From Minisyncoccia bacterium (GTDB lineage: Bacteria; Patescibacteriota; Minisyncoccia; Phycocordibacterales; UBA918), in NCBI GenBank assembly GCA_046293175.1, contig JBKBPM010000001.1:593408-657407 (forward strand): a stretch of DNA of 64,000 bases, given 5' to 3'. Positions 3,197 through 51,002 of the stretch are shown here, in pieces (positions within the stretch are counted from its first letter, which is position 1; every line of letters begins with the position of its first letter). The translations under genes and the position numbers were made by a program. The notes under the pieces were generated by a model that searched no databases, had not been told where the DNA came from, and saw only the letters and a list, made by a program, of their open reading frames with translations.

Positions 3197-3584
3197 ACAG
3201 TAGGTATGTGACCACCGATACTGACATGCCAAGTACCGTACCCCAGGCCATATCGACGAGCGTTATTGACAGTGGCCAATCACGTAAGGTAGCGAGATTC
3301 GTGAGATCATACGTTGCATAGGTAAAGAATCCGAAGAGGGCGCCGTAGATAAGTGCGTATTGCCACTCACCTTTTACTACCGCTGGGTAAATTGCAAACA
3401 TAACCAGACCAACAAGGAACACGAGATAAAAAATAATTGCTGCTGTCCAATTAATATCCCCCATGATGTAGCCGAGTTTTTCTTTGTAAAAATTACTCGC
3501 CACCAACCCAAGCCAGACCATATCAATCGTAAAAAAGATTGGGACCGATATAAGGTATAACGTCAAAAATTGGCTGATATTCAT
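3180..3584 (-). CDS. Small polytopic membrane protein (DUF2177-like)
   Basis: 134 aa with four predicted TM helices and clear coding periodicity. Confidence 0.45.
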   Translation of the reverse strand: MNISQFLTLYLISVPIFFTIDMVWLGLVASNFYKEKLGYIMGDINWTAAIIFYLVFLVGLVMFAIYPAVVKGEWQYALIYGALFGFFTYATYDLTNLATLRDWPLSITLVDMAWGTVLGMSVSVVTYLLYARFI

Positions 3585-3646
3585 ATACCTCTATCATATC
3601 ACAACTGACCGGCGAACTATGTTCGCCGGTCAGTTGTTGATTATTT

Positions 3647-4525
3647 TTATTTACCGCGATGTTGTACTGATTCAAGGAGTGCTGCCATACCTGCCAAATC
3701 TTTGTTGGCACCAGCATCAAGAATAATGGTGTTGCCATGAGCGGCTGCACTCGTAATCGTATCAAGGCGGTTGGTATCAGAGAGTAACTGAATCGATTGT
3801 TCAGTGGTAAGTCCAGCGTTTTGCATGGTACGCATTGCTTCCTCAAGGCCGCGGGCAATTGCTTCACGCATCTGGGCCATCCCCTCACCTTGGAGCTTCT
3901 TACTCTCCGCTTCAGCTTGGGCGGCACCGACGAGCTTGATACGCTGCGCTTCAGCTTCGTTACGAGCTGCTTCCATGAGGCGCTTACTTGCAATCACTTG
4001 ATTAAAGGCATCTCGAACTTCGGTACTCGGTTGTGGTTCATCAACGAGGACGTTTTCGATAATGTACCCAAAACGAGCAAACTGCGCCGACAGAGCTGAC
4101 TGCACCTCTTGCTCAACCGCATCACGATTGGCATAGAGGTCGGTCATCTCCATACCTGAGGCAGTCTGCCGTACATTGTTAAGGACGTAAGAAGCAATCT
4201 GCTTTTCTGGCGCCTCGAGTTCGTAGTGTGCCTTCACTGCACCAACTGCGTCATCACTCGCCCGGTACTGCACTTTAACGGGTAAGGTCATAAACGCATT
4301 GTCACTTGTCTTCACTGATACGTCGGCGTGAATTTCCTGAATCTGCAAGTTAACCCGCGCCACCACAACCGTAATCGGCCATGGCAGTTTCGCGTGGAGT
4401 CCTGGAAATACCGCCGCCTTGTGTGGTCGGCCAAAGGTTTCAAGAATGGCAGCGGTTTTTCCACGAACGATGAAGAGAATCGACGGTAAAAGGAGCAAGA
4501 GAACAATGAGCAAAATCCAGAACAT
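3647..4525 (-). CDS. SPFH/band-7 (stomatin/prohibitin/HflC-like) membrane protein
   Basis: N-terminal TM, a band-7 core, and a C-terminal coiled region rich in A/E/Q. Confidence 0.8.
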   Translation of the reverse strand: MFWILLIVLLLLLPSILFIVRGKTAAILETFGRPHKAAVFPGLHAKLPWPITVVVARVNLQIQEIHADVSVKTSDNAFMTLPVKVQYRASDDAVGAVKAHYELEAPEKQIASYVLNNVRQTASGMEMTDLYANRDAVEQEVQSALSAQFARFGYIIENVLVDEPQPSTEVRDAFNQVIASKRLMEAARNEAEAQRIKLVGAAQAEAESKKLQGEGMAQMREAIARGLEEAMRTMQNAGLTTEQSIQLLSDTNRLDTITSAAAHGNTIILDAGANKDLAGMAALLESVQHRGK

Positions 4526-4598: not shown

Positions 4599-5429
4599 CT
4601 AATGTATCAATACAGCATCGTGATGCTCTTCCCCAAGCTCATCATGCTCACCCTCACCATGGACATGCTCCCCTTTGATGGCAAAAGCTACCAGCGACAT
4701 CACCGCAAGGCCCACAACAAGGACGAGGAGATGTTTCGCAAATCCAGCACTGTCGGCATGGTGGTGTGGTTTTGGAATCAGGTCATGGAATACCACATGA
4801 AGGAAAAAACCAGCCGCCAGAGCGAGTAAGAGCACTTCAAGATCATGATTTACGACAGCGAGGTAGCTGAGTCCAATACCAATGAAGATGGTGCTCGAAA
4901 CAAGGAAGTTTATGACAAGGGCTCGTTTTGTGCTATACCCTGCCTGCCGAAGCACAAAGAATTCTGAAACTTCTTGCAGTGCCTCATGAATGAGGATTGA
5001 TACGGTCACCGACATACCAAGCGCCGGTGACACAATAAAAGCCGGAACCATAATAATCCCATCAGCCACATTGTGTACTGCGTCACCGACAATCAATTTT
5101 CGAGCACTCTGTTTATTGCCGTGACGATGATCATGATCACAGTCTGGATCGTGGTGTTGATGGGTCTCGGGGATGAGGTACTCAAGTCCCCACGCCAAAA
5201 GATACCCAACCGCAATGAGGACTACCGCCATGAGGGCGGTATCAGCGAGTTCAAATACCTCAAGCGCGAGTGCACCCGATGTAACCAAAAATACCCCAGC
5301 CGAAAATGATACAAGATACGACAGTTTTTCCTCCAAAAACTTGGCAGCAACTTTATGAGTAAATAAAACCCCAGTTAGTGACGCGAGCATCACCATTCCT
5401 CCTGCGACGATAATTGATATAAATTCCAT
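4599..5429 (-). CDS. zupT: ZIP-family zinc transporter (ZupT-like)
   Basis: His-rich loops (HQHHDPDCDHDHRHG; HVHGEGEHDELGEEHHD) and an 8-TM ZIP architecture including HNVADG/HEALQE-type motifs. It is divergent from a Fur-family gene. Confidence 0.8.
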   Translation of the reverse strand: MEFISIIVAGGMVMLASLTGVLFTHKVAAKFLEEKLSYLVSFSAGVFLVTSGALALEVFELADTALMAVVLIAVGYLLAWGLEYLIPETHQHHDPDCDHDHRHGNKQSARKLIVGDAVHNVADGIIMVPAFIVSPALGMSVTVSILIHEALQEVSEFFVLRQAGYSTKRALVINFLVSSTIFIGIGLSYLAVVNHDLEVLLLALAAGFFLHVVFHDLIPKPHHHADSAGFAKHLLVLVVGLAVMSLVAFAIKGEHVHGEGEHDELGEEHHDAVLIH

Positions 5430-27298: not shown

Positions 27299-27793
27299 CT
27301 ATGCAATCGTTTCTTCTCGCTTAGCGAGCTTCTTCACTGCCTTTTGGTAAGCCCATTCCTCTGTTGGAGGAGTAAGTAGGATGAGCTGGTTATATGCCTC
27401 AGAAAGCTTGCACACTTCCTTATACAATTCCTGCTCCGAGTGGAAGGACGCGAATGACTCATGTAGCGCACGCGCCCTATGCTTCACAACTGTAAAGCTT
27501 TTGGCCGAGTTCAAGTTCTCGTAGTACGACTTATGCGGACTTACAATACTGCTGGTCGCCGTAACAACGGCAGAGACAACGGTGAGCCAGCCCCACCATG
27601 CGGGTATCGCCTGCCCTACAACGAGCAAGCCAGAGAGTGAAGCGATGATCGCGGGAACGACCTCAAACCAGAAAGCCATTGTCTTGCTCCTCGACGCGAG
27701 TATGTGGTGCGCTTCAGCAGTGTGTCGCGCATTGTCCTCGATCGTCTGACATTCCTTTTTTAAGTTATCAATATTATTCATAAGTTGATCCAA
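27299..27793 (-). CDS. SLATT-like 2TM effector protein
   Basis: 164 aa with an N-terminal helix, two adjacent TM helices (AFWFEVVPAIIASLSGLLVVG / WWGWLTVVSAVVTATSSIV), and a C-terminal helical region. It overlaps the nucleotidyltransferase stop by 20 nt, which suggests translational coupling. Confidence 0.55.
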   Translation of the reverse strand: MDQLMNNIDNLKKECQTIEDNARHTAEAHHILASRSKTMAFWFEVVPAIIASLSGLLVVGQAIPAWWGWLTVVSAVVTATSSIVSPHKSYYENLNSAKSFTVVKHRARALHESFASFHSEQELYKEVCKLSEAYNQLILLTPPTEEWAYQKAVKKLAKREETIA

Positions 27794-29126
27794 TTGGTAC
27801 TAATACTTTGCCGATAGCAACGCATACATTGTCCTTCACGACGTAACACTCGACGTAGTGTTCGCCATGGTAGAGCGTGCTCTCTGTCTTCTCCTGTGAT
27901 CCCGCATCGGGAGTAATCTCACCACGCAAGCCGTCGGCTTTCTTGGCTTCTTCTCCGAAATTGCGGACTTTCCAAAAAATGCGGTACGGACCAGGCACAT
28001 TTATCTTCTGCACGCGGAACTTCAGCTTCTTTCCTTTCAGCAAAGGAAAACGCTTCTGAAGGAAGTCGGTGAGCCAGCCCGTCCGAAAGCCGTTTTGGGT
28101 AACTTCTGCGTCTATGGATACTTCGTACCCAGAAAATAACCTGGTCGGTATGCCATATTTGCTCTCAAGGAATTCTTCTTTCGCAGATGGATACTCGCGC
28201 GTTAGCTGTGCGATCTTGTCTGGAATCGGATCCACCGCAATCGCACGATCAGCCACCGTCGGGAAGTCTGCACCAAATATCTTCTGCCACTCGAGAGATG
28301 CGTCACGCAACTTATCCGCAGCTTCGTACTCGATTGCCTTCTCAGCACGAGAAACAGCCGAATCGACCCGCGAAGCCCATGCGTCTCCGAGGCTGATCGA
28401 CTGGCTAGAGCCGAGCGAGTGGACTAAACCATGACGCTTTGACCGAAGATACTCGAAGAATCCGAGCACGAGTTGTGGGTACCGCTCGTTCACTTGGTTG
28501 TTGTATCTGTCGCGCAGGTAATCAATGACGAGAATCTCAAGAATGTATGACTTGAGCGGAACGCCACAATTCCTCACCCACGCCTTAAGCATACGAACGA
28601 GCGACTTCGTGTGCTTCGTCTGCGTACTTGAATCATGAATCGCCTTGATCTCTGCGCTCGGGTTCCATATGTCCCACGATCCGCCCTTCTCGGTATTTGG
28701 AATGCGATATTCGCCTGAGGGCAGTCGCCATGCGGGAAGAAGCTCGACAGTATGCGTGCTTTCCGCGAAGCTAATGAGGATCACCTTGCCCCACGCCTTT
28801 ATGCCTTCTGTCGTACTGAATCGGTCTTTCAAAATACCTCGCACTTCCTGAAGTAGTTGGGACTGCTTGTTTCCGCTGAGAGCGTCGAACCGCGCAAACT
28901 CAGAGTCTGGCATCTTGAAGAGCAGATCAATGTCTTTCGGGGGACGAATATTCGTGTGCTTACCATACGAACCGATGAGGAGCTTCGTGCTTCCATCGTA
29001 GGTAGTCGTCGGGTAGTACTTGCCATGCAAAGTTTCAGAGACGTTCTTGATCTTCGTCTCAGCGTCCGCCTTTTGTGGGTCGGTTAGCTTGATGTTCTCT
29101 AAAAATTTGCGAAAGGCGGAATCCAT
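27774..29126 (-). CDS. cGAS/DncV-like (SMODS/CD-NTase) nucleotidyltransferase with a C-terminal extension of about 150 aa
   Basis: Pol-beta NTase motif GSYGKHTNIRPPKDIDLLF (GS…DxD) with the third acidic residue near …HTVELLP…. A helical domain follows, then an unassigned C-terminal domain. Confidence 0.7.
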   Translation of the reverse strand: MDSAFRKFLENIKLTDPQKADAETKIKNVSETLHGKYYPTTTYDGSTKLLIGSYGKHTNIRPPKDIDLLFKMPDSEFARFDALSGNKQSQLLQEVRGILKDRFSTTEGIKAWGKVILISFAESTHTVELLPAWRLPSGEYRIPNTEKGGSWDIWNPSAEIKAIHDSSTQTKHTKSLVRMLKAWVRNCGVPLKSYILEILVIDYLRDRYNNQVNERYPQLVLGFFEYLRSKRHGLVHSLGSSQSISLGDAWASRVDSAVSRAEKAIEYEAADKLRDASLEWQKIFGADFPTVADRAIAVDPIPDKIAQLTREYPSAKEEFLESKYGIPTRLFSGYEVSIDAEVTQNGFRTGWLTDFLQKRFPLLKGKKLKFRVQKINVPGPYRIFWKVRNFGEEAKKADGLRGEITPDAGSQEKTESTLYHGEHYVECYVVKDNVCVAIGKVLVPIGSTYE

Positions 29127-29192
29127 AATGTAATTCCTCTATTTTATTACATTTGACGAGGAGGAGCGAATGTCCTGAAAAAAGTCTATAAT

Positions 29193-29603
29193 ATGGGCAT
29201 GGAGTATCGACTCGAAGCAAAACCTACGGTCCTCGAGAAGGGGCAAAAGTATCGAATAATTCAGATCACTGATGTCGCGCATCACACAGCAAAGAAAACT
29301 CCTACCCCTTCCGTAGGCAAGAAAATAGAGAAAACGCCTGACGCAACGCCTGGACGAATCTACAGGCCTACGGATTTAGGTGTAGTACTTGATCCTAAAG
29401 CGTATATCCTCAAAATGCTCGGGGAGGACCCAGATTTCCAAAAGCTTGTGCGGGACGAGGCAGCAAAAGGGGTAAAGGTTGTCCTTGCCTTTCCCAAGGA
29501 CGGTGTCCCGGCAGAGTACGGAAAAGACACGATTGAGTTTCTGAAAAGTAAGAACGGCAAGCGTGTGCTTCGAGGGCTTGCCAAGGAAAAGCGTGAGGAA
29601 TAA
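29193..29603 (+). CDS. Hypothetical Lys-rich protein, divergent from the CBASS-like operon
   Basis: 136 aa with no recognisable domain. Candidate regulator or phage protein. Confidence 0.35.
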   Translation: MGMEYRLEAKPTVLEKGQKYRIIQITDVAHHTAKKTPTPSVGKKIEKTPDATPGRIYRPTDLGVVLDPKAYILKMLGEDPDFQKLVRDEAAKGVKVVLAFPKDGVPAEYGKDTIEFLKSKNGKRVLRGLAKEKREE

Positions 29604-29771
29604 AATAGTGACATAGCGTAGTAAAAAGTAGAGTAGCGTATCGCCTTCTGGCCATGCCTATTCCGCGCAAGAAGTGAGTTGAGGTTATCGAGCCTCTTCC
29701 TCGTTTCGTGTGTGGAATAGGCCTTTTCTATATCCATACATCCTTACAAATCGTAACGGTTTTAAAGGAGT

Positions 29772-31055
29772 ATGAAAAAACTCTCATGGACGACGGTCCA
29801 AAAACGTGTAAACGATCTCATTCCCCAGGAGATCAATCCCCGCAAGATCAGCGACAAGCAGATGTCCGATCTCAAGCGGAGCCTTAAGAAGTTCAATCTG
29901 GTGGAGATCCCTGCCGTGGATTATGACGGCACCATTCTCGCAGGACACCAGCGCATCAAGGCGCTCCAGCTTCTTGAGCGCGGAGACGAGACAATCGACA
30001 TCCGTGTGCCGAATCGCAAGCTTACGGAAAAGGAAGCCAAGGAATACCTGATCGGCTCTAACAAGCTCGGCGGAGACTGGGACTTCGACATCCTGAAGTC
30101 CTTTGAACTCGACACGCTCTCATTCGCTGGATTCGATGATATGGAGCTTGCGAAGTTCTGGGACAACGATAACGAGACCAAAGAGGATTCGTTCGATATC
30201 GAGAAGGAGCTGAAGAAGATAACCGATCCCAAGACAAAGCTCGGCGACATCATCCATCTCGGCAAGCATAAGATCCTCTGCGGGGACTCGACTGACCCAA
30301 AGAACCTTGCGCGCCTCCTCGGTGAGGAGCGAGCCAGCATGATTTACTCAGATCCCGTCTACAACATCTCTATCGACTACGACGGAGGCATCGGCGGAAA
30401 GAAGGACTACGGAGGAAACGTGAACGACACGCGTACCTACGAGGAGTACAAGGGGTTCATCAGAGATAGTCTCACAGCCGCACTCGCGGTTTCCTCTCCC
30501 AATACTCACGTCTTCTACTACTGCGATCAGGTCTACATCGGCTTGATTCAAGAAATCTACCGCTCGCTTGGCATCGCGAACAAGCGCGTATGCCTGTGGC
30601 TCAAGAACTCGCAGAATCCCGTACCGAAGGTGTACTGCAACAAGGCATACGAACCTGCCGTATACGGCACGCGCGGAAAGCCATACCTTGCCGAAGCTGT
30701 AAGCGATCTCAACGAAGTGATGAATAAGGAGTTCACCACCGGCAACGAGCTGGTGACGCAGGTCGATGACTTCCTTGAAATCTGGACGGCAAAGCGACTT
30801 GCCGCGAAAGACTACAAGCACGCTACGTCAAAGCCGATCACGCTCCACGAGAAAGCGATCAAGCGTTGCACGAAGCCGAATGACATTATTCTCGACAGTT
30901 TCCTCGGTTCGGGCAGCACCCTCTTGGCCGGAGAACAGCTCGGACGACGCGTATACGGTTGTGAGCTTGAGCCAAGGTTCTGCGACCTGATCGCGGCTCG
31001 CTTCGAGGCGCTTACTGGAATTAAGCCGGTCATCGAACGCCATGAAGAAAAATAA
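29772..31055 (+). CDS. ParB-like N-terminal domain fused to an N6/N4 DNA methyltransferase (phage-type orphan MTase)
   Basis: ParB_N region (…EIPAVDYDGTILAGHQRIKALQL…). MTase motif IV-like IYSDPVY. Motif I region TSKPITLHEKAIKRCTKPNDIILDSFLGSGSTLLAG. Confidence 0.8.
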   Translation: MKKLSWTTVQKRVNDLIPQEINPRKISDKQMSDLKRSLKKFNLVEIPAVDYDGTILAGHQRIKALQLLERGDETIDIRVPNRKLTEKEAKEYLIGSNKLGGDWDFDILKSFELDTLSFAGFDDMELAKFWDNDNETKEDSFDIEKELKKITDPKTKLGDIIHLGKHKILCGDSTDPKNLARLLGEERASMIYSDPVYNISIDYDGGIGGKKDYGGNVNDTRTYEEYKGFIRDSLTAALAVSSPNTHVFYYCDQVYIGLIQEIYRSLGIANKRVCLWLKNSQNPVPKVYCNKAYEPAVYGTRGKPYLAEAVSDLNEVMNKEFTTGNELVTQVDDFLEIWTAKRLAAKDYKHATSKPITLHEKAIKRCTKPNDIILDSFLGSGSTLLAGEQLGRRVYGCELEPRFCDLIAARFEALTGIKPVIERHEEK

Positions 31056-31515
31056 ATTCCAGAAGCAGTTTTTAGACGAACTGCGGAAAGTCCCGATTGT
31101 ACAGGTCGCGTGCGAGAAGACAGGACTTTCCCGCAACAGCGTATACCGTTGGCGAAACGAAGATGCTGAGTTCCGCAAGGCAATGGAAGAGGCCATCGCC
31201 GAGGGCGAGGAGCTCGTTAACGACATGAGCGAAGGACAGCTCCTCACGCTTATCAAGGAGAAGAATTGGTCAGCGATCAGCTTCTGGCTCCGCAAGCGTA
31301 ATCCGAAGTTTAAGGACCGCATTGAGGTGGAAGTCGCGCCGAAACAGGAAGAACTTACGCCCGAACAGGAAGAGACGGTGCGCGAGGCTCTTCGCCTTGC
31401 CTCTATGGATCCCATTACCAATCTAAAAGAAGCCAATCATGGAACACAGCCCGCTACCGCCTCATCTGATGGAAACGATGATGAAGGATCGGAAAGTACG
31501 AACGGCAATCACTAA
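31042..31515 (+). CDS. Phage terminase small subunit-like HTH protein
   Basis: HTH (…ACEKTGLSRNSVYRWRNEDAEFRKA…) with an acidic C-terminus. It lies directly upstream of, and overlaps, the TerL gene. Confidence 0.5.
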   Translation: MKKNKFQKQFLDELRKVPIVQVACEKTGLSRNSVYRWRNEDAEFRKAMEEAIAEGEELVNDMSEGQLLTLIKEKNWSAISFWLRKRNPKFKDRIEVEVAPKQEELTPEQEETVREALRLASMDPITNLKEANHGTQPATASSDGNDDEGSESTNGNH

Positions 31516-32911
31516 GGAAAGCCACTGGTACTTCTTCCACTTCTACTTTGCCCACTATGTGAAGTATCCGACAGCCCCGTTCCAGAAGGAACTTATGGGA
31601 CTTTCGGAACGTGAGGATGTGAAGAATCTCGTCGTGGTTGCCTTTCGTGGATCGGCAAAGTCCACGATCTTCACCATGTCCTATCCGATCTGGGCAATCC
31701 TTGGAAAGCAACAAAAGAAGTTCATCGTCATCCTCTCACAGACTCAGGCTCAGGCTAAGCAGCACATGATGAACCTGCGACGCGAGCTTGAAAATAATAC
31801 GCTTCTCAAAAGTGACCTAGGATCGTTCCAAGAAGAGCGAAACGAATGGGGCGCGACATCCCTTGTGTTCGGAAGACATGGTGCGCGCATCACAGCTGTT
31901 TCGACCGAACAGAGCGTTCGCGGTCTGCGCCATAACCAGCACCGCCCCGATCTGATCATCGGAGACGACCTAGAAGACATCGCTTCGACCAAAACACGCG
32001 AGGGTCGCAACAAGACGTATGAGTGGCTCACGGGAGAAGTGATTCCTGCTGGAGACCGAAACACGAGGCTCATTGTGATTGGAAACCTCCTGCATGAGGA
32101 CTCGCTCATCATGCGGCTCAAGGAAGACATTACTGACAAGCGCATTGATGGAATGTTCCGAGCGTACCCACTTATGGAGGGGCAGAGCATCCTGTGGCCG
32201 GGAAAGTACCCAACCATGGAGGATATCGAAGAGGAACAGAGAAAAGCGGCGAACGACTATGCGTGGCAGCGAGAATATCTCCTCAATATTGTTCCAGCCG
32301 AAGACCAGGTTATTGATCCCGCATGGATTCAGTACTACGACGAAATTCCGCCTCGTGTAAGGGTCTTCAAAAACGACACCTACATGACGAATCTGGAAGT
32401 ACGTATCGGTGTCGATCTTGCGATCTCAAAGAGGGACACCGCCGACTATACCGCGATGATCCCAGCTCTCCTTTACGAGGCGAAAAAAGGATACGACATC
32501 TATATTCTTCCGAAGATCATCAACAAGCGACTTTCCTTCCCTGAGACGGTTGAGACATGCAAGATCATACACAACTCGTATAAGGATGTTCCGCACTGGA
32601 ATGGTCCTGTGTTCGTGATCGAGGACGTGGCGTATCAGAGTGCGCTACCTCAACAGCTCAAGGCGGAAGGGCTTAGGCAGATACACACCGTAAAGCCAGG
32701 AAATACCGATAAGCGTGCGCGCCTCATGCTTACCGCGAACTTGATTAAGACTGGTGTCGTGAAGTTTCCGCGACAAGGAGCGGAGCAGCTAATCCAGCAG
32801 ATCGTACACTTCGGTGTCGAGAAGCATGATGACCTCGCGGATGCTTTCTCTGCCCTTGTCTTGGACGCACTTGCCGACCCGCCAAGTACGTTTCGTATTT
32901 TCTTTATTTAA
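31469..32911 (+). CDS. Phage terminase large subunit
   Basis: ATPase Walker A-like AFRGSAKST and Walker B LIIGDDLED. C-terminal RNaseH-like nuclease motifs (…VDLAISKRDTADYTAM…; …HDDLADA…). The start is uncertain between 31439 and 31481. Confidence 0.8.
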   Translation: METMMKDRKVRTAITKESHWYFFHFYFAHYVKYPTAPFQKELMGLSEREDVKNLVVVAFRGSAKSTIFTMSYPIWAILGKQQKKFIVILSQTQAQAKQHMMNLRRELENNTLLKSDLGSFQEERNEWGATSLVFGRHGARITAVSTEQSVRGLRHNQHRPDLIIGDDLEDIASTKTREGRNKTYEWLTGEVIPAGDRNTRLIVIGNLLHEDSLIMRLKEDITDKRIDGMFRAYPLMEGQSILWPGKYPTMEDIEEEQRKAANDYAWQREYLLNIVPAEDQVIDPAWIQYYDEIPPRVRVFKNDTYMTNLEVRIGVDLAISKRDTADYTAMIPALLYEAKKGYDIYILPKIINKRLSFPETVETCKIIHNSYKDVPHWNGPVFVIEDVAYQSALPQQLKAEGLRQIHTVKPGNTDKRARLMLTANLIKTGVVKFPRQGAEQLIQQIVHFGVEKHDDLADAFSALVLDALADPPSTFRIFFI

Positions 32912-33005
32912 GAGAATATGTGCAAACTACTTAAAGCGACCATGCGACGTTTTCTTAGTTCTGCATAGTCTATGCACCACCAACTGGTCTGGCATCAATA
33001 TACAT

Positions 33006-34325
33006 ATGCGAACGGATCAAATTTCAGCCCTTATTGGGCAGGCACCTGTCATACCTACAACAAAGGTTAAATACGTCCTGTATGCCCGAAAATCGACCGA
33101 GCAGGACGAGAAGCAGGCACTATCTATCGAATCCCAAGTAAAGGAAATGTTGGCGATAGCGGAACGAGAAAATCTTGAAATTGTAGATATACGCAGAGAA
33201 GCACATTCGGCCAAAGATTCAGGACAGCGACCAGTGTTCAAAGAAATTCTTGAGGATGTACGAAGAGAACGATTTAATGGAATTCTAGTATGGCATCCAG
33301 ACCGTCTAAGTAGAAATGCTGGCGATCTTGGATCTGTTGTAGATCTAATGGATCAGAAGCTCTTAGTACAGATACGCACTTACGGACAAACGTTCACAAA
33401 CACACCAAGCGAGAAGTTTCTTTTGATGATTCTCTGTTCTCAAGCAAAGCTAGAGAATGATAATAAAAGTATTAACGTAAAGAGAGGTCTCAAGACTAGA
33501 GTTGAAATGGGACTATGGCCTGCCCCTGCCCCAACAGGCTATCTCAAAGAAAAACGAATAGATCGAAAGTGCGAGACCCTAATAGATCCAGACCGAGGAC
33601 CAATCATCAGAAAAGTATTTGAGAAGGTCGCTTATGAAAAGTGGTCAGGACGAAAGGTATACAACTGGCTAAAGTTTGATCTCAACTTCAAGACCGCTGC
33701 TGGAAATAAAAATCTAACGGTGAGCAACATTTACTGCATTCTAGAGAATCACTTTTACTACGGTGTATTTGAATATCCCAAGAACTCTGGAAATTGGTAT
33801 CAGGGAAAGCATGAGCCTCTAATCACTAAAGAGCTATTTGAGCAGGTTCAAGAGCAAGTAAAAAGCCAATTCGTCAGGTCTGAAGGTAAGGAGTTTGCTT
33901 TTACTAAACTTATGACCTGTGGCTTATGCGGGTCAGGCATTACAGCCGACGAAAAGTTCAAGAAGCAGAAGAACGGCAATATACACCGGCACGTTTACTA
34001 CGGCTGCACCAAACGGAGAGATCCGAACTGCAAATGTGGCTATATCAACGAAATAGATCTCATTAAGCAATTTGAGGACTTAATGGATGTCATTGATATC
34101 GACGAAATCGGCATTAAAGAAAAGATGAAGAATGAGATTGAACGATTCAAGAAATTCCAGAGAATATTTTTAGGAAAATCTATTCAGGTAACAGTGGCAG
34201 ATGTAGATATACGCAATTACTCTAAATATTTGTTGAGGGAGGGTAAAGATATAGAGAAACGCGAACTACTCGGTTGTCTTAAAGGTCAAATTTTACTCCA
34301 ACACAAAACGATTTCGCTTAAATAA
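33006..34325 (+). CDS. Large serine recombinase (resolvase/invertase-type catalytic domain, recombinase domain, zinc ribbon)
   Basis: Catalytic region KYVLYARKSTEQDE…LSIESQ, a recombinase domain, and a Cys cluster CGLCGS…YYGCTKRRDPNCKCG. The start was chosen at MRTDQ. Confidence 0.85.
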   Translation: MRTDQISALIGQAPVIPTTKVKYVLYARKSTEQDEKQALSIESQVKEMLAIAERENLEIVDIRREAHSAKDSGQRPVFKEILEDVRRERFNGILVWHPDRLSRNAGDLGSVVDLMDQKLLVQIRTYGQTFTNTPSEKFLLMILCSQAKLENDNKSINVKRGLKTRVEMGLWPAPAPTGYLKEKRIDRKCETLIDPDRGPIIRKVFEKVAYEKWSGRKVYNWLKFDLNFKTAAGNKNLTVSNIYCILENHFYYGVFEYPKNSGNWYQGKHEPLITKELFEQVQEQVKSQFVRSEGKEFAFTKLMTCGLCGSGITADEKFKKQKNGNIHRHVYYGCTKRRDPNCKCGYINEIDLIKQFEDLMDVIDIDEIGIKEKMKNEIERFKKFQRIFLGKSIQVTVADVDIRNYSKYLLREGKDIEKRELLGCLKGQILLQHKTISLK

Positions 34326-47776: not shown

Positions 47777-47859
47777 AATATGAAGAGTATAGCAAATTAA
47801 CGCGCAAGACGGAAAAGAGTGCGGGCCAGCCGCGCTCTTTTCACGATTATTCTAACTTG

Positions 47860-47932
47860 AGCCAATGCCCAGGCTTGAACTGGGGACCTGACGCTTACGA
47901 TGCGCCTGCTCTACCAACTGAGCTACATTGGC
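47860..47932 (-). tRNA. tRNA-Thr (anticodon CGU), no encoded CCA
   Basis: GCCAATG-TA-GCTC-AGTTGGTA-GAGC-A-GGCGC-ATCGTAA-GCGTC-AGGTC-CCCAG-TTCAAGC-CTGGG-CATTGGC-T. Confidence 0.8.
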
Positions 47933-48085: not shown

Positions 48086-48158
48086 GCCAATGTAGCTCAG
48101 TTGGTAGAGCACATCCATGGTAAGGATGAGGTCTCCAGTTCAATCCTGGACATTGGCT
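48086..48158 (+). tRNA. tRNA-Thr (anticodon GGU), no encoded CCA
   Basis: Acceptor and D-arm are identical to the divergent tRNA-Thr(CGU). Anticodon loop is ATGGTAA. Confidence 0.8.
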
Positions 48159-48160
48159 CA

Positions 48161-48205
48161 TAAATCAAAAAACGTCCGTCAGGGCGTTTTTTGATTTATG
48201 AGCCA
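48161..48205. terminator. Long perfect palindromic terminator that includes the tRNA-Thr 3' end
   Basis: ctcataaatcaaaaaacg-tccgtcagg-cgttttttgatttatgag with 18-nt arms. Confidence 0.65.
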
Positions 48206-48370
48206 ATGTAGCAAGCCAACTGCTTGGCTTGTGTCCAAGATTGAAAGCCGCAGCTATGTTTTTTGCTTAGGTAAAGCAAAAAACTGCGAGGCGGGGTCGA
48301 GAACACTTAGTAGATTAGGAACGTAGTGAACTAATATACTTAGTGATTCGTGACCGATCCTTTCACCACT
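48206..48370. repeat. tRNA-linked repeat R1: inverted partial copy of the tRNA-Thr 3' half with a 22-nt hairpin insert, followed by a conserved core of about 85 nt
   Basis: Reverse complement of 48181-48250 reads ggctTTCAATCtTGGACA[caagccaagcagttggcttgct]ACATTGGCTCATAAATCAAAAAA, against the tRNA's CCAGTTCAATCCTGGACATTGGCTCATAAATCAAAAAA. The core gcgaggcggggtcgagaacacttagtagattaggaacgtagtgaactaatatacttagtgattcgtgacc recurs at 50758-50830. Confidence 0.55.
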
Positions 48371-48968: not shown

Positions 48969-49108
48969 ATAAAATTATAACACCAGAAAGGACTTAAACA
49001 TTACATGTTCAGTACCCCAATTGGCTTGATTGATGCGCTTCGCTTTCAATCCAGCTCAATCGGGCTTCGAGTCCCGCCCATATGTGTCCCACACATATGG
49101 GCATCGAT

Positions 49109-49140
49109 CGCTCACGAAAAAAGCCAGCTTTGGGCTGACT
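49109..49140. terminator. Hairpin terminator 3' of tRNA-Asp
   Basis: aaaaaagccagc-tttgg-gctgactttttt with 12-nt arms and one mismatch. Confidence 0.55.
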
Positions 49141-49150
49141 TTTTTCTTTG

Positions 49151-49224
49151 CGCGGTCGAAGGGACTCGAACCCTCGGCCTCTTCCGTGACAGGGAAGCGC
49201 TCTAACCAGCTGAGCTACGACCGC
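49151..49224 (-). tRNA. tRNA-Asp (anticodon GUC)
   Basis: GCGGTCG-TA-GCTC-AGCTGGTTA-GAGC-G-CTTCC-CTGTCAC-GGAAG-AGGCC-GAGGG-TTCGAGT-CCCTT-CGACCGC-G. A promoter TTGCCA-N17-TATAAG sits immediately upstream (reverse complement of about 49233-49262). Confidence 0.8.
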
Positions 49225-49304
49225 AGATATGCCTTATACTGCCACAAAGTAACAGTGGCAAGAGTATATACACTTTTCGTAAAAAGGGCAATATCTTGCG
49301 TGAT

Positions 49305-49632
49305 GTCGATGAGAGAGAACGATCCTGACTGGATCTGTAGACCTTTTCTGTCGTTCATTTCGCGTTGCTCACAAACGTCTAGAAAAGGTCATCCTTCCCT
49401 CACAAGCAGTCCCCCGGACTGCTTTCTATCAACAGCCGAACACTGCCATCACTGGCAATGTTCTTTGTGTCGATGGGAGGGAACGAATCTTACAGATTCA
49501 GTACACCTTTTCTGTCATTTGTTTCGCGTTGCTCACAAACGTCTAGAAAAGGTCATCGTTCCCTCACAAGCAGTCCCCCGGACTGCTTTCCATCAACAGC
49601 CGAACACTGCCATCACTGGCAATGTTCTTTGT
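49305..49632. repeat. Two tandem 164-bp repeat units, each starting with a copy of the 3' end of the adjacent tRNA(CAT)
   Basis: Units 49305-49468 and 49469-49632 are about 90% identical. Each begins gtcgatgRgagRgaacgatcct, which is the reverse complement of the tRNA T-arm plus acceptor 3' strand. They contain internal hairpins (ACCTTTTCT…AGAAAAGGT; GCAGTCCcccGGACTGC). ORF-track entries 49030..49686 and 49458..49664 are artefacts of this repeat. Confidence 0.7.
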
Positions 49633-49705
49633 GTCGATGGGAGGGAACGATCCTCCGACCTTAGCTTTATGAGTGCTACGCTCTAACCAACTGAGCTACA
49701 TCGAC
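49632..49705 (-). tRNA. tRNA-Met or tRNA-Ile2 (anticodon CAU) with an unusual T-loop (ATCGTTC)
   Basis: GTCGATG-TA-GCTC-AGTTGGTTA-GAGC-G-TAGCA-CTCATAA-AGCTA-AGGTC-GGAGG-ATCGTTC-CCTCC-CATCGAC-A, with G1:C72 paired. Confidence 0.65.
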
Positions 49706-50477: not shown

Positions 50478-50572
50478 AGGTTTTTAGTATATCACCAAAC
50501 AAAATGGGGTGAAAATAATTTGCATTATTTTTATAAACATTGTATAGTCTCCGCACCTCTTCATAGAGATAT

Positions 50573-50643
50573 AGCGGGTTAGAGGAGAGGTACCTCGGGA
50601 GGCTCATAACCTCCAGACCCCGGTTCGATTCCGGGACCCGCAA
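50573..50643 (+). tRNA. tRNA-Met (anticodon CAU), possibly the initiator
   Basis: The best fold uses A1 with a 1:72 mismatch, U8, D-stem GAGG/CCTC, anticodon stem GGAGG/CCTCC, loop CTCATAA, T-arm CCCGG-TTCGATT-CCGGG, and discriminator A. The mismatch at 1:72 and A73 are initiator-like. Confidence 0.6.
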
Positions 50644-50690
50644 CAATAACAAAAACCACCCAGATGGGTGGTTTTTGTTATTGTTGCGGG
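50643..50690. terminator. Long perfect palindromic terminator that includes the tRNA-Met 3' end
   Basis: caacaataacaaaaaccaccca-tct-gggtggtttttgttattgttg with 22-nt arms. Confidence 0.65.
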
Positions 50691-50838
50691 TCAGGAAGCA
50701 AATTATTTTGCTTCCGTCCGGAATCGAACAGCCGCAGCGATGTGAGGCGACTCCGCAGGAGCCGAACCAGCGAGGCGGGGTCGCGAGTACTTACTAGAAT
50801 TGGAATGAAATGAACAATTATAGTTAGTAACTCGTGAC
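50691..50838. repeat. tRNA-linked repeat R2: inverted partial copy of the tRNA-Met 3' half with a 22-nt hairpin insert, plus a conserved core shared with R1
   Basis: The reverse complement reads gctgTTCGATTCCGGac[ggaagcaaaataatttgcttcc]tgACCCGCAACAATAAC, against the tRNA's GGTTCGATTCCGGGACCCGCAACAATAAC. The core gcgaggcggggtcgcgagtacttactagaattggaatgaaatgaacaattatagttagtaactcgtgac aligns with 48283-48360. Confidence 0.55.
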
Positions 50839-51002
50839 TCGATGGAGGGACCTGTTTTTTAAAGAAGTTAAAATTTGTATCCTCTTATTTTACGATAGTC
50901 TTTTATTTACTAACTTTAATAAAATTAAAGTTATAAGACTGTATATTGCCATTAGTAATATGACACCAAAAACACCGGGGAAGACCGGCACTGAGACGAG
51001 AG

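Follow-up and report, generated by a model that had tools for sequence, protein, structure and literature searches.

A small, protein-less and putatively mobile element with target-matched antisense segments at tRNA gene ends of Patescibacteria

Introduction

In the insertion sequence IS608, an internal guide 5' of a hairpin determines, by base pairing, where the foot of that hairpin is cleaved or joined. Class C group II introns insert just behind intrinsic terminator hairpins, with short base pairing to the flanking DNA. Integration into transfer RNA (tRNA) and transfer-messenger RNA (tmRNA) genes reportedly shows a sublocation preference, which Williams is said to have described in 2002. 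The bridge RNA (seekRNA) of IS110 elements is a folded scaffold of ~100-180 nt in which two guide segments flanking a small stem-loop match the target, with guides that differ among close relatives (PMC11208160, PMC11208158). Here we analyze a 64,000-nucleotide chromosomal segment of a Minisyncoccia bacterium (contig JBKBPM010000001.1, positions 593,408 to 657,407; hereafter the window), in which a tRNA-Met gene is followed by a folded, non-coding segment at 50644-50854. This segment is best read as one insertion of a family of small (about 150-220 nt), protein-less mobile elements that is common in Patescibacteria. A full-text literature search that included the core sequence found no description of the element, and the family is apparently undescribed so far.

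Patescibacteria have tiny genomes and few recognized mobile elements, yet one core family is present in >100 species-level genomes. Its ~100-nt conserved, covarying and strand-specific structure carries no name in databases and gives RNA and mobile-DNA biology alike a new object of study. The modules replace tRNA 3' ends and terminators and make long perfect palindromes, and thereby affect tRNA annotation, assembly and binning of Candidate Phyla Radiation genomes.

Results

The tRNA-Met locus carries inverted and direct copies of the tRNA 3' end

The locus begins with an initiator-like tRNA-Met(CAU) at 50573-50643 on the plus strand, the strand of all features in this section unless stated otherwise. 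The Rfam tRNA model scores the gene at 56.3 bits and ARAGORN places it at 50573-50644, so that two predictors agree on its position to within one nucleotide. A reading made earlier from the sequence alone (hereafter the sequence-only reading) had raised the possibility of an initiator on the basis of a 1:72 mismatch and A73. Both features are present, as A1 opposite A72 and as the discriminator A73, and inspection of the sequence adds A11:U24. The anticodon stem holds two of the three G-C pairs of the initiator set, with A-U at 29:41. Judged by these traits, a bacterial initiator tRNA is plausible, although initiator identity would have no special role because the targets of the family span at least 18 tRNA identities.

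The 3' part of tRNA-Met from G53 onward constitutes the target segment, X. Its left copy, X-left (50623-50650), comprises G53, the T-loop, the 3' strands of the T-stem and acceptor, A73 and a 7-nt trailer, and has exact reverse complements at 50718-50729 and 50677-50692. Directly behind X-left stands HP1 (50651-50676), a terminator-like hairpin of the form AAAAA-CCACCC-AGAT-GGGTGG-TTTTT, which forms the apex of a palindrome at 50635-50692. A repeat finder gives the arms of this palindrome as 50635-50662 and 50665-50692, each 28 nt long, 100% complementary and 2 nt apart. The left arm begins 9 nt inside tRNA-Met and thus takes in the acceptor 3' strand together with A73. The sequence-only reading was right that the palindrome is perfect and includes the tRNA 3' end, which the predictors leave in place; its estimate of 22-nt arms was too short. 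By eye, the HP1 sequence CCACCC-AGAT-GGGTGG-TTTTTGTT fits an intrinsic terminator. A terminator scan left HP1 unlisted, probably because the A- and T-runs pair with one another and lengthen the stem.

The inverted copy of X, termed X', is divided in two, much as the sequence-only reading had described. X'2 (50677-50692) is the exact reverse complement of 50635-50650 and covers the trailer and the acceptor 3' strand. It is split from X'1 by HP2 (50694-50715), an optional module hairpin of 22 nt with a 9-bp covarying stem, GGAAGCAAA-TTAT-TTTGCTTCC. X'1 (50718-50729) is a 12-nt putative guide, CCGGAATCGAAC, that abuts the conserved core and exactly reverse-complements 50623-50634 (G53-G64, that is, G53, the T-loop and the T-stem 3' strand). 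The core itself (50730-50838) ends in GTGAC and scores 91.9 bits with the family covariance model, in whose training set this copy is included. Its parts are J1 (AGCCGCAG, 50730-50737), the variable hairpin HP3 (50738-50771), J2 (GAGGCGG, 50772-50778) and the long hairpin HP4 (50779-50838), whose conserved lower stem contains a G.T wobble, a bulged A and a T.T mismatch. Behind the core lies X-right (50839-50854), a direct copy, now decayed, of the tRNA sequence starting with T55 (TCGATGGAGGGACCTG versus TCGATTCCGGGACCCG, 12/16) that begins exactly 2 nt inside the duplex that X'1 would form with its target.

The element contains no open reading frame (ORF), and a consensus scan found no promoter-like site within it. 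In the same scan the sole candidate promoter for tRNA-sense transcription into the element was TTTGCA-18-TATAGT at 50519-50548, upstream of tRNA-Met, which is a consensus match only. A contig from a separate assembly in Logan (L001, SRR31360863; contigs are given hereafter by our own L numbers) is identical across 3220 nt spanning the element.

A sister copy occupies 48086-48367, also on the plus strand, behind tRNA-Thr(GGU) (48086-48158). It comprises a palindrome (48150-48209), HP2 (about 48212-48231), X'1 (48234-48245, complementary to the T-loop and T-stem at 11/12 positions), a core (48246-48354) and, starting at 48355, an X-right that has decayed. Over about 210 nt the two loci run colinear, which bears out the claim that the tRNA-Met locus repeats the composite architecture of the tRNA-Thr locus. 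That reading had put the similarity of the cores at about 75%; the ungapped comparison of 48281-48354 with 50765-50838 gives 58/74 identical positions (78%), and the runner-up 74-mer match in the whole window, on both strands, reaches 36/74. Global alignment of the cores scores 12.9 standard deviations above 2000 mononucleotide shuffles, whereas the sequence-only reading would have fallen with a similarity below that of shuffled controls.

A core family follows tRNA and tmRNA genes across Patescibacteria

A search pattern of 22 nt of core, GAGGCGGGGTCGNGANNACTTA, was drawn from the two window copies and scanned against genome contigs. At least 119 loci in about 105 assemblies match, nearly all of them labeled as Patescibacteria lineages, with several genomes containing 2-4 matches; the closed genome CP060229.1 (L046) is among the carriers. 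Among the matches listed, 90-94 of 119 have a tRNA on the same strand in the 330 nt upstream, in most cases with its end 57-140 nt away from the core, and these tRNAs cover no fewer than 18 amino-acid identities. Of the remaining listed loci, at least five follow a tmRNA gene and a few follow the terminator of a protein gene. The arrangement that the sequence-only reading called the same grammar with different tRNA-derived sequence recurs at >100 tRNA, tmRNA and terminator sites in Patescibacteria. A covariance model made from 97 cores returned 73 matches in 53 sources, and those outside the pattern selection lie 32-95 nt behind same-strand tRNAs or form the second units of tandem arrays. Two cores (L099 and L105) lie on short contigs of about 4 kb from metagenome-assembled genomes labeled Alphaproteobacteria and Parachlamydiaceae; mis-binning of Patescibacteria contigs is a more probable explanation here than spread beyond the phylum.

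Read in tRNA sense, the family has a constant order of X-left (a gene 3' segment plus a few trailer bases), HP1, X', core and X-right, the latter a direct copy of X. HP1 usually bears A- and T-runs and resembles a bidirectional terminator. X' is the reverse complement of X and is split by HP2 in about half of the copies. The stem of HP2 covaries over 9 bp and is capped by a conserved tetraloop, and in every case 11-12 nt separate HP2 from the core downstream. The HP2 loop type is found at about 50/105 loci and reads CTGC in most copies and TTAT in the window tRNA-Met copy. Small extra hairpins with a CTGC-type loop also occur at the T-stem/acceptor boundary of X-right in L011 (about 5204-5250) and inside HP2 in L019, and the CTGC hairpin might be a separable unit of its own.

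Four of the six tRNA genes in the window carry modules. The family-1 core described above follows tRNA-Thr(GGU) and the tRNA-Met at 50573, and a second kind of core with a like layout follows a further tRNA-Met and tRNA-Asp, both on the minus strand. Family 2 occupies 49304-49631 (minus sense), 3' of tRNA-Met 49631-49705, as two tandem 164-nt units that are 91% identical. Each unit runs through X, a hairpin, an imperfect X' split by a hairpin, a core ending in ...GGTGTACTGAAYCTGTAAG and a direct copy of the last 22-23 nt of the tRNA. Between tRNA-Met and tRNA-Asp the first hairpin of family 2 lacks a T-run, and no terminator-like site precedes the core. A third core variant, family 2b, lies at 48995-49149 (minus sense), 3' of tRNA-Asp 49150-49224, and reads GCCCGATTGAGCTGG...CCAATTGGGGTACTGAACATGTAATG followed by a decayed direct T-loop copy.

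Related genomes differ in the presence of insertions, and cores are uncoupled from their flanks

Orthologous loci were found via the neighbors of the adjacent NTP-transferase gene. Between tRNA-Met and tRNA-Asp, no family-2 unit is present in L125, L126 and L127, where the spacer measures 79-82 nt; one unit is present in L123 and L124, and two in the window. A family-1 copy stands behind tRNA-Asp in L123 and L125 and is missing from L126 and L127. L123 and L124 have no insertion behind the initiator-like tRNA-Met. A copy related to family 2b of the window tRNA-Asp occurs in L121, and in L123 the family-1 copy has overwritten this tRNA-Asp site.

Inspection of L125 defines what was inserted. 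Here the native sequence, CAGTTAG followed by a terminator and CGTTACG, stands behind X-right, so the insert must run from just past the gene end through HP1, X' and the core. HP1 in these related loci is thus part of the inserted DNA and not of the native site. Reuse of a native terminator as HP1 by fold-back copying is accordingly ruled out for family 1 by L125 versus L126, but it may apply to some other copies, to judge by family 2b at the window tRNA-Asp, an older copy. The first hairpin of that copy, unlike those of the family-1 cases, is homologous to the native terminator of the empty L126 site.

Tandem arrays are frequent, with examples in L003, L022, L082 and L121. In L003 (reverse strand), the second unit lies 3' of the family-1 core at 913-1014 and has a longer core, CTCAGGAGGGGGTCGGGGAACC...ATGTAACTCATGACC, followed by a third tRNA-Gly end copy and the native terminator. 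The sequence-only reading had described neither the direct tRNA-end repeat behind the core nor the insertion polymorphism or the tandem arrays; together, these three features identify the element as a mobile insertion. In L121, a free-standing ORF of the LAGLIDADG type (3434-4123, 229 aa, weak Pfam match) lies between a decayed family-2 array behind tRNA-Met and the next tRNA-Asp, and about 130 nt of unrelated sequence interrupt the nearest X copy ahead of this ORF. The window tRNA-Met(CAU) at 49631-49705 (minus strand) has an odd T-loop, AUCGUUC, with A54 and U58 in place of the usual U54 and A58. This T-loop is common to the L123 orthologue, whereas the tRNA at the empty sites of L125-L127 has a normal UUCGACU.

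The core is the unit that the copies share. The most similar cores, about 95% identical by eye with HP3 included, stand behind tRNA-Trp and tRNA-Arg of different species, and their similarity extends from J1 to GTGAC while X, HP1, HP2 and X' are unrelated. Across 2701 pairs, similarity of X, HP1, HP2 and X' is uncorrelated with similarity of the core (r=0.05). Between the orthologous copies of L123 and L125, several compensatory changes keep the long hairpin perfect, the non-tRNA trailer included. Any mechanism must therefore explain a shared core with flanks that are replaced at each site and are then kept paired.

The core folds strand-specifically

The core unit of ~100 nt reads AGCCGCAG ... 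GAGGCGG-GGTCGNGA ... TCGTGAC and consists of two hairpins with conserved purine-rich junctions. Across the family, J1 (A-GCC-GNA-G) precedes HP3, which covaries and is variable in length, and J2 (C-GA-GGC-GG) precedes HP4. The lower stem of HP4 is conserved in sequence, with a G.U wobble, a bulged A and a U.U mismatch, and its upper stem is varied by many compensatory changes. Compensatory changes back J1/J2, HP3 and HP4 alike, and the G.U wobble at columns 87/157 is present in 96/97 sequences. The plus (tRNA-sense) strand folds better in 91/95 cores, by a mean of 7.7 kcal/mol, with 206 versus 47 G.U pairs. The best reading of these features is that the core acts as a single-stranded nucleic acid of the tRNA-sense strand.

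Triloops make up 64 of the 152 apical loops, and 32 have the form C(GNA)G; GNRA accounts for only 4, and UNCG is absent. As DNA, GCGNAGC forms a hyperstable mini-hairpin, whose RNA counterpart is far less stable and which is found at sites of single-strand DNA initiation (PMC13037366). The loop types, the position of HP1 ahead of the core and the lack of an internal promoter lean towards a folded single-stranded DNA form, with a read-through RNA as the alternative.

Antisense segments match the target, and the joint lies at a set register

In 63/105 loci, the 11 nt 5' of J1 reverse-complement an upstream site with at most one mismatch, compared with 0/105 for shuffled guides, and chance is therefore excluded as the source of the antisense match. 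The sequence-only reading had argued for a templated mechanism rather than chance. Its rejection of chance holds, and a templated or target-matched origin fits; a pre-existing guide, or selection or gene conversion acting on the hairpin, would account for these observations too. Sites fall into two classes, one starting at T54 (n=43) and the other at the last bases of the tRNA (the 3'-end class, n=9).

The joint between core and X-right follows a register rule. Of the 24 loci with a well-preserved X-right, 16 have it immediately behind GTGAC and opening with the third base of the target, 2 nt inside the duplex. The window tRNA-Met copy keeps this register despite a one-base shift of its guide, which starts from G53 with X-right from T55. 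For targets of the 3'-end class, core and X-right meet immediately behind the discriminator. Direct repeats range from about 6-13 nt in this class to 19-30 nt; their length depends on target class, which rules out a fixed staggered-cut duplication.

No known RNA family or linked protein gene accounts for the element

Rfam 15 (4227 models, including omega RNAs, attC, ribozymes, group I and II introns and tmRNA) returned only tRNAs at gathering score. At an expectation value (E)<=10, nothing of meaningful score was found over 50693-50860 or 48210-48370. Whether the inverted copies might score as tRNA pseudogenes, as the sequence-only reading had raised, was answered in the negative. Neither ARAGORN nor the Rfam tRNA model reports a tRNA on the minus strand of 50677-50730, even at E<=10, and the inverted copy mirrors only positions 53-73 and is interrupted by a hairpin. 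A tmRNA, a permuted tmRNA or a minus-strand tRNA-like gene is rejected likewise, with ARAGORN and Rfam negative and the core folding far better on the plus strand. By eye, the junctions match no hammerhead, kink-turn, group I or group II motif. No core match was found in 2.9 million viral contigs, on which basis a phage or plasmid origin is rejected.

To look for a partner gene, all ORFs of >=120 aa within 3.5 kb of the 119 listed cores were clustered. No linked protein family emerged: the largest cluster accounts for at most 8/119 cores and all are housekeeping (IF2, CCA-adding enzyme, ValRS, SmpB, FtsH and similar). A linked transposase, integrase or reverse transcriptase is rejected by the same clustering.

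Other features of the window

The window is a chromosomal segment of a genome resembling those of Paceibacteria/Kaiserbacteria, with housekeeping genes (prfB, ftsEX, pyrG, ligA, gatA and type IV pilus genes) and one unrelated island. The latter spans 27774-34325 and is likely integrated. Its genes specify a CBASS-like nucleotide cyclase of the SMODS/AGS-C type (27774-29126), a DNA methylase of the N6/N4 type (29772-31055) and a large serine recombinase (32814-34325); nothing seen here ties the island to the tRNA modules, and its recombinase lies 16 kb off the element. The divergent tRNA-Thr(CGU) (47858-47932) and tRNA-Thr(GGU) (48086-48160) are 85% complementary over 75 nt and lie 153 nt apart, with a module at GGU only.

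Discussion

We regard the element as a mobile, non-autonomous, target-matched single-strand module, a reading that we hold with slightly better than even confidence. X' would complement the DNA that was entered, usually from the T-loop of a tRNA or tmRNA to a few bases past the 3' end and sometimes the very 3' end plus trailer. The core would then have displaced the native copy of the target stretch, now X-right, and the insert would have brought a fresh gene 3' end and a terminator-like hairpin. With this fresh end the tRNA stays intact, its 3' end held in a long perfect hairpin with X'. As for how insertion proceeds, the element, most likely as folded single-stranded DNA or else as RNA read through from the tRNA promoter, may pair X' with the target strand. 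An enzyme acting in trans would recognize the irregular lower stem of HP4 as a handle and join the 3' foot of HP4 (GTGAC) to the target 2 nt inside the duplex. We put this specific combination of guide and trans-acting enzyme forward tentatively, as falling short of an even chance.

Several points weigh against this reading. That an enzyme acts in trans is an assumption, and no free, circular or excised form of the element was seen. A pre-existing guide does not easily explain why X, HP1 and X' all differ between near-identical cores. This uncoupling of core and flanks, together with L003, where two tandem units have an identical 83-nt X-HP1-X' and cores of different families, fits local templating better than a pre-existing guide. 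The folding of the X-HP1-X' part shows no strand bias, and most of the strand bias of the core comes from two conserved wobble positions. RNA, too, typically has G.T wobbles and sheared G.A junctions, so that the core could be either RNA or single-stranded DNA. In addition, the search pattern fixed 19 core positions as identical, which inflates the apparent conservation, and many of the assemblies carry generic taxon labels.

Local templating is unlikely, although it survives best among the alternatives and accounts best for the uncoupling of core and flanks. Here the core alone would be imported, and X-left, HP1 and X' would be built on site from the target by replication-type template switching or fold-back copying. 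Possible intermediates are a duplication-inversion-duplication product, a dumbbell or a rolling hairpin; quasi-palindrome correction would keep the arms matched, and X' would be a by-product rather than a guide. Such a process would suit the evolutionary independence of the core from X, HP1 and X', and also the tandem units of L003 and L121, which have identical X-HP1-X' and different cores. It would also suit palindromes that are perfect even where X-right has decayed, compensatory changes that reach the non-tRNA trailer in L123/L125, and the X-HP1-X' region without strand bias. However, simple fold-back at a native hairpin fails in L125/L126, where HP1 is foreign and the native trailer and terminator stand behind X-right. 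Plain copying of the target could not produce HP2, with its covarying stem, CTGC loop and fixed distance of 11-12 nt from the core inside X', and the X' of family 2 is imperfect.

We give still less credence to Campbell-type integration of a small X-HP1-X'-core circle into an identical X by a tyrosine-type (integrase/Xer) or integron-like recombinase encoded elsewhere. An insert flanked by direct T-loop-to-3'-end repeats with the tRNA restored is the classic signature of integration into tRNA and tmRNA genes, and regeneration of the target predicts tandem arrays. Folding of X onto X' would yield a duplex version of the target, and an attP duplex may form by single-strand folding, as in CTX phage or integron attC sites. 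Against these likenesses, no integrase lies near any of the 119 listed loci, and targets of at least 18 tRNA identities, tmRNA and non-tRNA terminators are too diverse for one protein that reads sequence. The repeat length varies from about 6-13 nt in the 3'-end class to 19-30 nt, and the uncoupling of the core from X/X' would be unexpected if the unit moved whole.

Least probable of the three alternatives that we weigh at length is a host-beneficial structured RNA that is co-transcribed with tRNAs and serves 3'-end processing, termination or sequestering of the tRNA 3' end, with X' as a partner in cis or in trans and the repeats as side effects of spread. Strong covariation, conserved non-canonical junctions and strand-specific folding in tRNA sense would all be expected of such an RNA. 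Modules at 4/6 window tRNA genes and family 2 between tRNA-Met and tRNA-Asp, with no T-run in its first hairpin and no terminator-like site before the core, also agree with it. However, presence at orthologous sites of close relatives is patchy, tandem and decayed copies exist and some tRNAs have no module. A terminator-like hairpin usually stands between tRNA and core, the element has no promoter of its own, and its loops are DNA-like rather than RNA-like. Decayed attL/attR scars of prophages or integrative islands, and assembly artifacts at the palindrome, are excluded, for although tRNA 3' ends are classic integration sites and assemblers can be misled by long palindromes, >100 loci in about 105 independent assemblies agree in size and architecture, the core is conserved and covarying, an independent Logan assembly is identical, and the viral contigs hold no match.

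Returning to the reading as a target-matched mobile module, the antisense match and the fixed register point to base-pair-directed insertion without a protein encoded by the element. If confirmed, this would be a new mode of programmable DNA insertion, a new ribozyme or a new single-strand DNA recombination system. One may go further and suppose a programmable insertion system that is guided by nucleic acid, has the core as its scaffold and carries no protein gene of its own. In such a system, an antisense segment of 11-30 nt would pick a tRNA, tmRNA or terminator-proximal site, fix the joint 2 nt inside the duplex and be rewritten for each target, with catalysis by the nucleic acid itself or by an unrecognized Patescibacteria enzyme on single-stranded DNA or RNA. 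We consider this extension possible but rather doubtful.

Comparison with known systems

Classical miniature inverted-repeat transposable elements resemble the element in being short, non-coding, multi-copy and polymorphic for insertion. Their element-specific terminal inverted repeats and fixed target-site duplication are lacking here; the inverted repeats (X', X-right) copy the local target, and the direct repeat measures about 6-30 nt. Like class C group II introns, the elements sit at terminator-bearing gene ends, but they show no ribozyme domains in Rfam and no reverse transcriptase or ORF, and measure about 100 nt as opposed to >=600 nt.

Integron attC sites, CTX-phage attP and rolling-circle single-strand origins share with the core an imperfect hairpin of one strand, conserved extrahelical or mismatched bases and a structure kept over sequence. 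At single-strand initiation sites the likeness extends to GCGNAGC-type mini-hairpins (PMC13037366). In contrast to these systems, the element has no attC-type R/L boxes and no Rfam attC match, targets tRNA ends rather than attI or dif, and shows no link to Rep, IntI or Xer. The bridge RNA of IS110 is comparable as a scaffold with split, target-matched guides that differ between near-identical cores. It differs in that X'2 and X'1 are both antisense to one strand of a single continuous target and are longer guides, that no second (donor) loop and no nearby DEDD recombinase gene is present, and that the target is repeated on both sides where IS110 shares a 2-nt core. On these grounds the element does not belong with the IS110 bridge RNAs.

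Elements that integrate into tRNA and tmRNA genes, namely tyrosine-integrase islands, prophages and cis-mobilizable elements, likewise insert from T-loop to 3' end, restore the gene, displace a direct copy and form tandem arrays. The present element has the flanking direct tRNA 3' repeat and the restored gene and carries or adjoins no recombinase gene. It differs further in its size of about 200 nt, in its inverted target copy and folded core, and in that a single family accepts every tRNA identity and even sites outside tRNA genes.

The IS200/IS605 family, with palindrome-associated transposable elements (PATEs), repetitive extragenic palindromes and bacterial interspersed mosaic elements, has strand-specific, irregular subterminal hairpins with wobbles, mismatches and bulges, and a guide 5' of the hairpin, as does the core. 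Its derivatives are also non-coding and multi-copy, and are mobilized in trans. The guide here is 11-30 nt compared with 4 nt, and there is no fixed target word of 4-5 nt (T-loop versus 3'-end class). Furthermore, the target segment is repeated both directly and inverted, no TnpA/TnpB gene is nearby and no Rfam omega-RNA matches. The element is not a PATE as defined, for its junctions, which lie at T-loop sites or behind the discriminator, share no word, and no TnpA/TnpB is nearby. We file it among the small non-autonomous mobile elements; that its mechanism is of a new kind is a serious possibility, though we would not count it as likely. By analogy, the element appears to work most like single-strand transposons of the IS200/IS605 type and to land where islands of the integrase type land.

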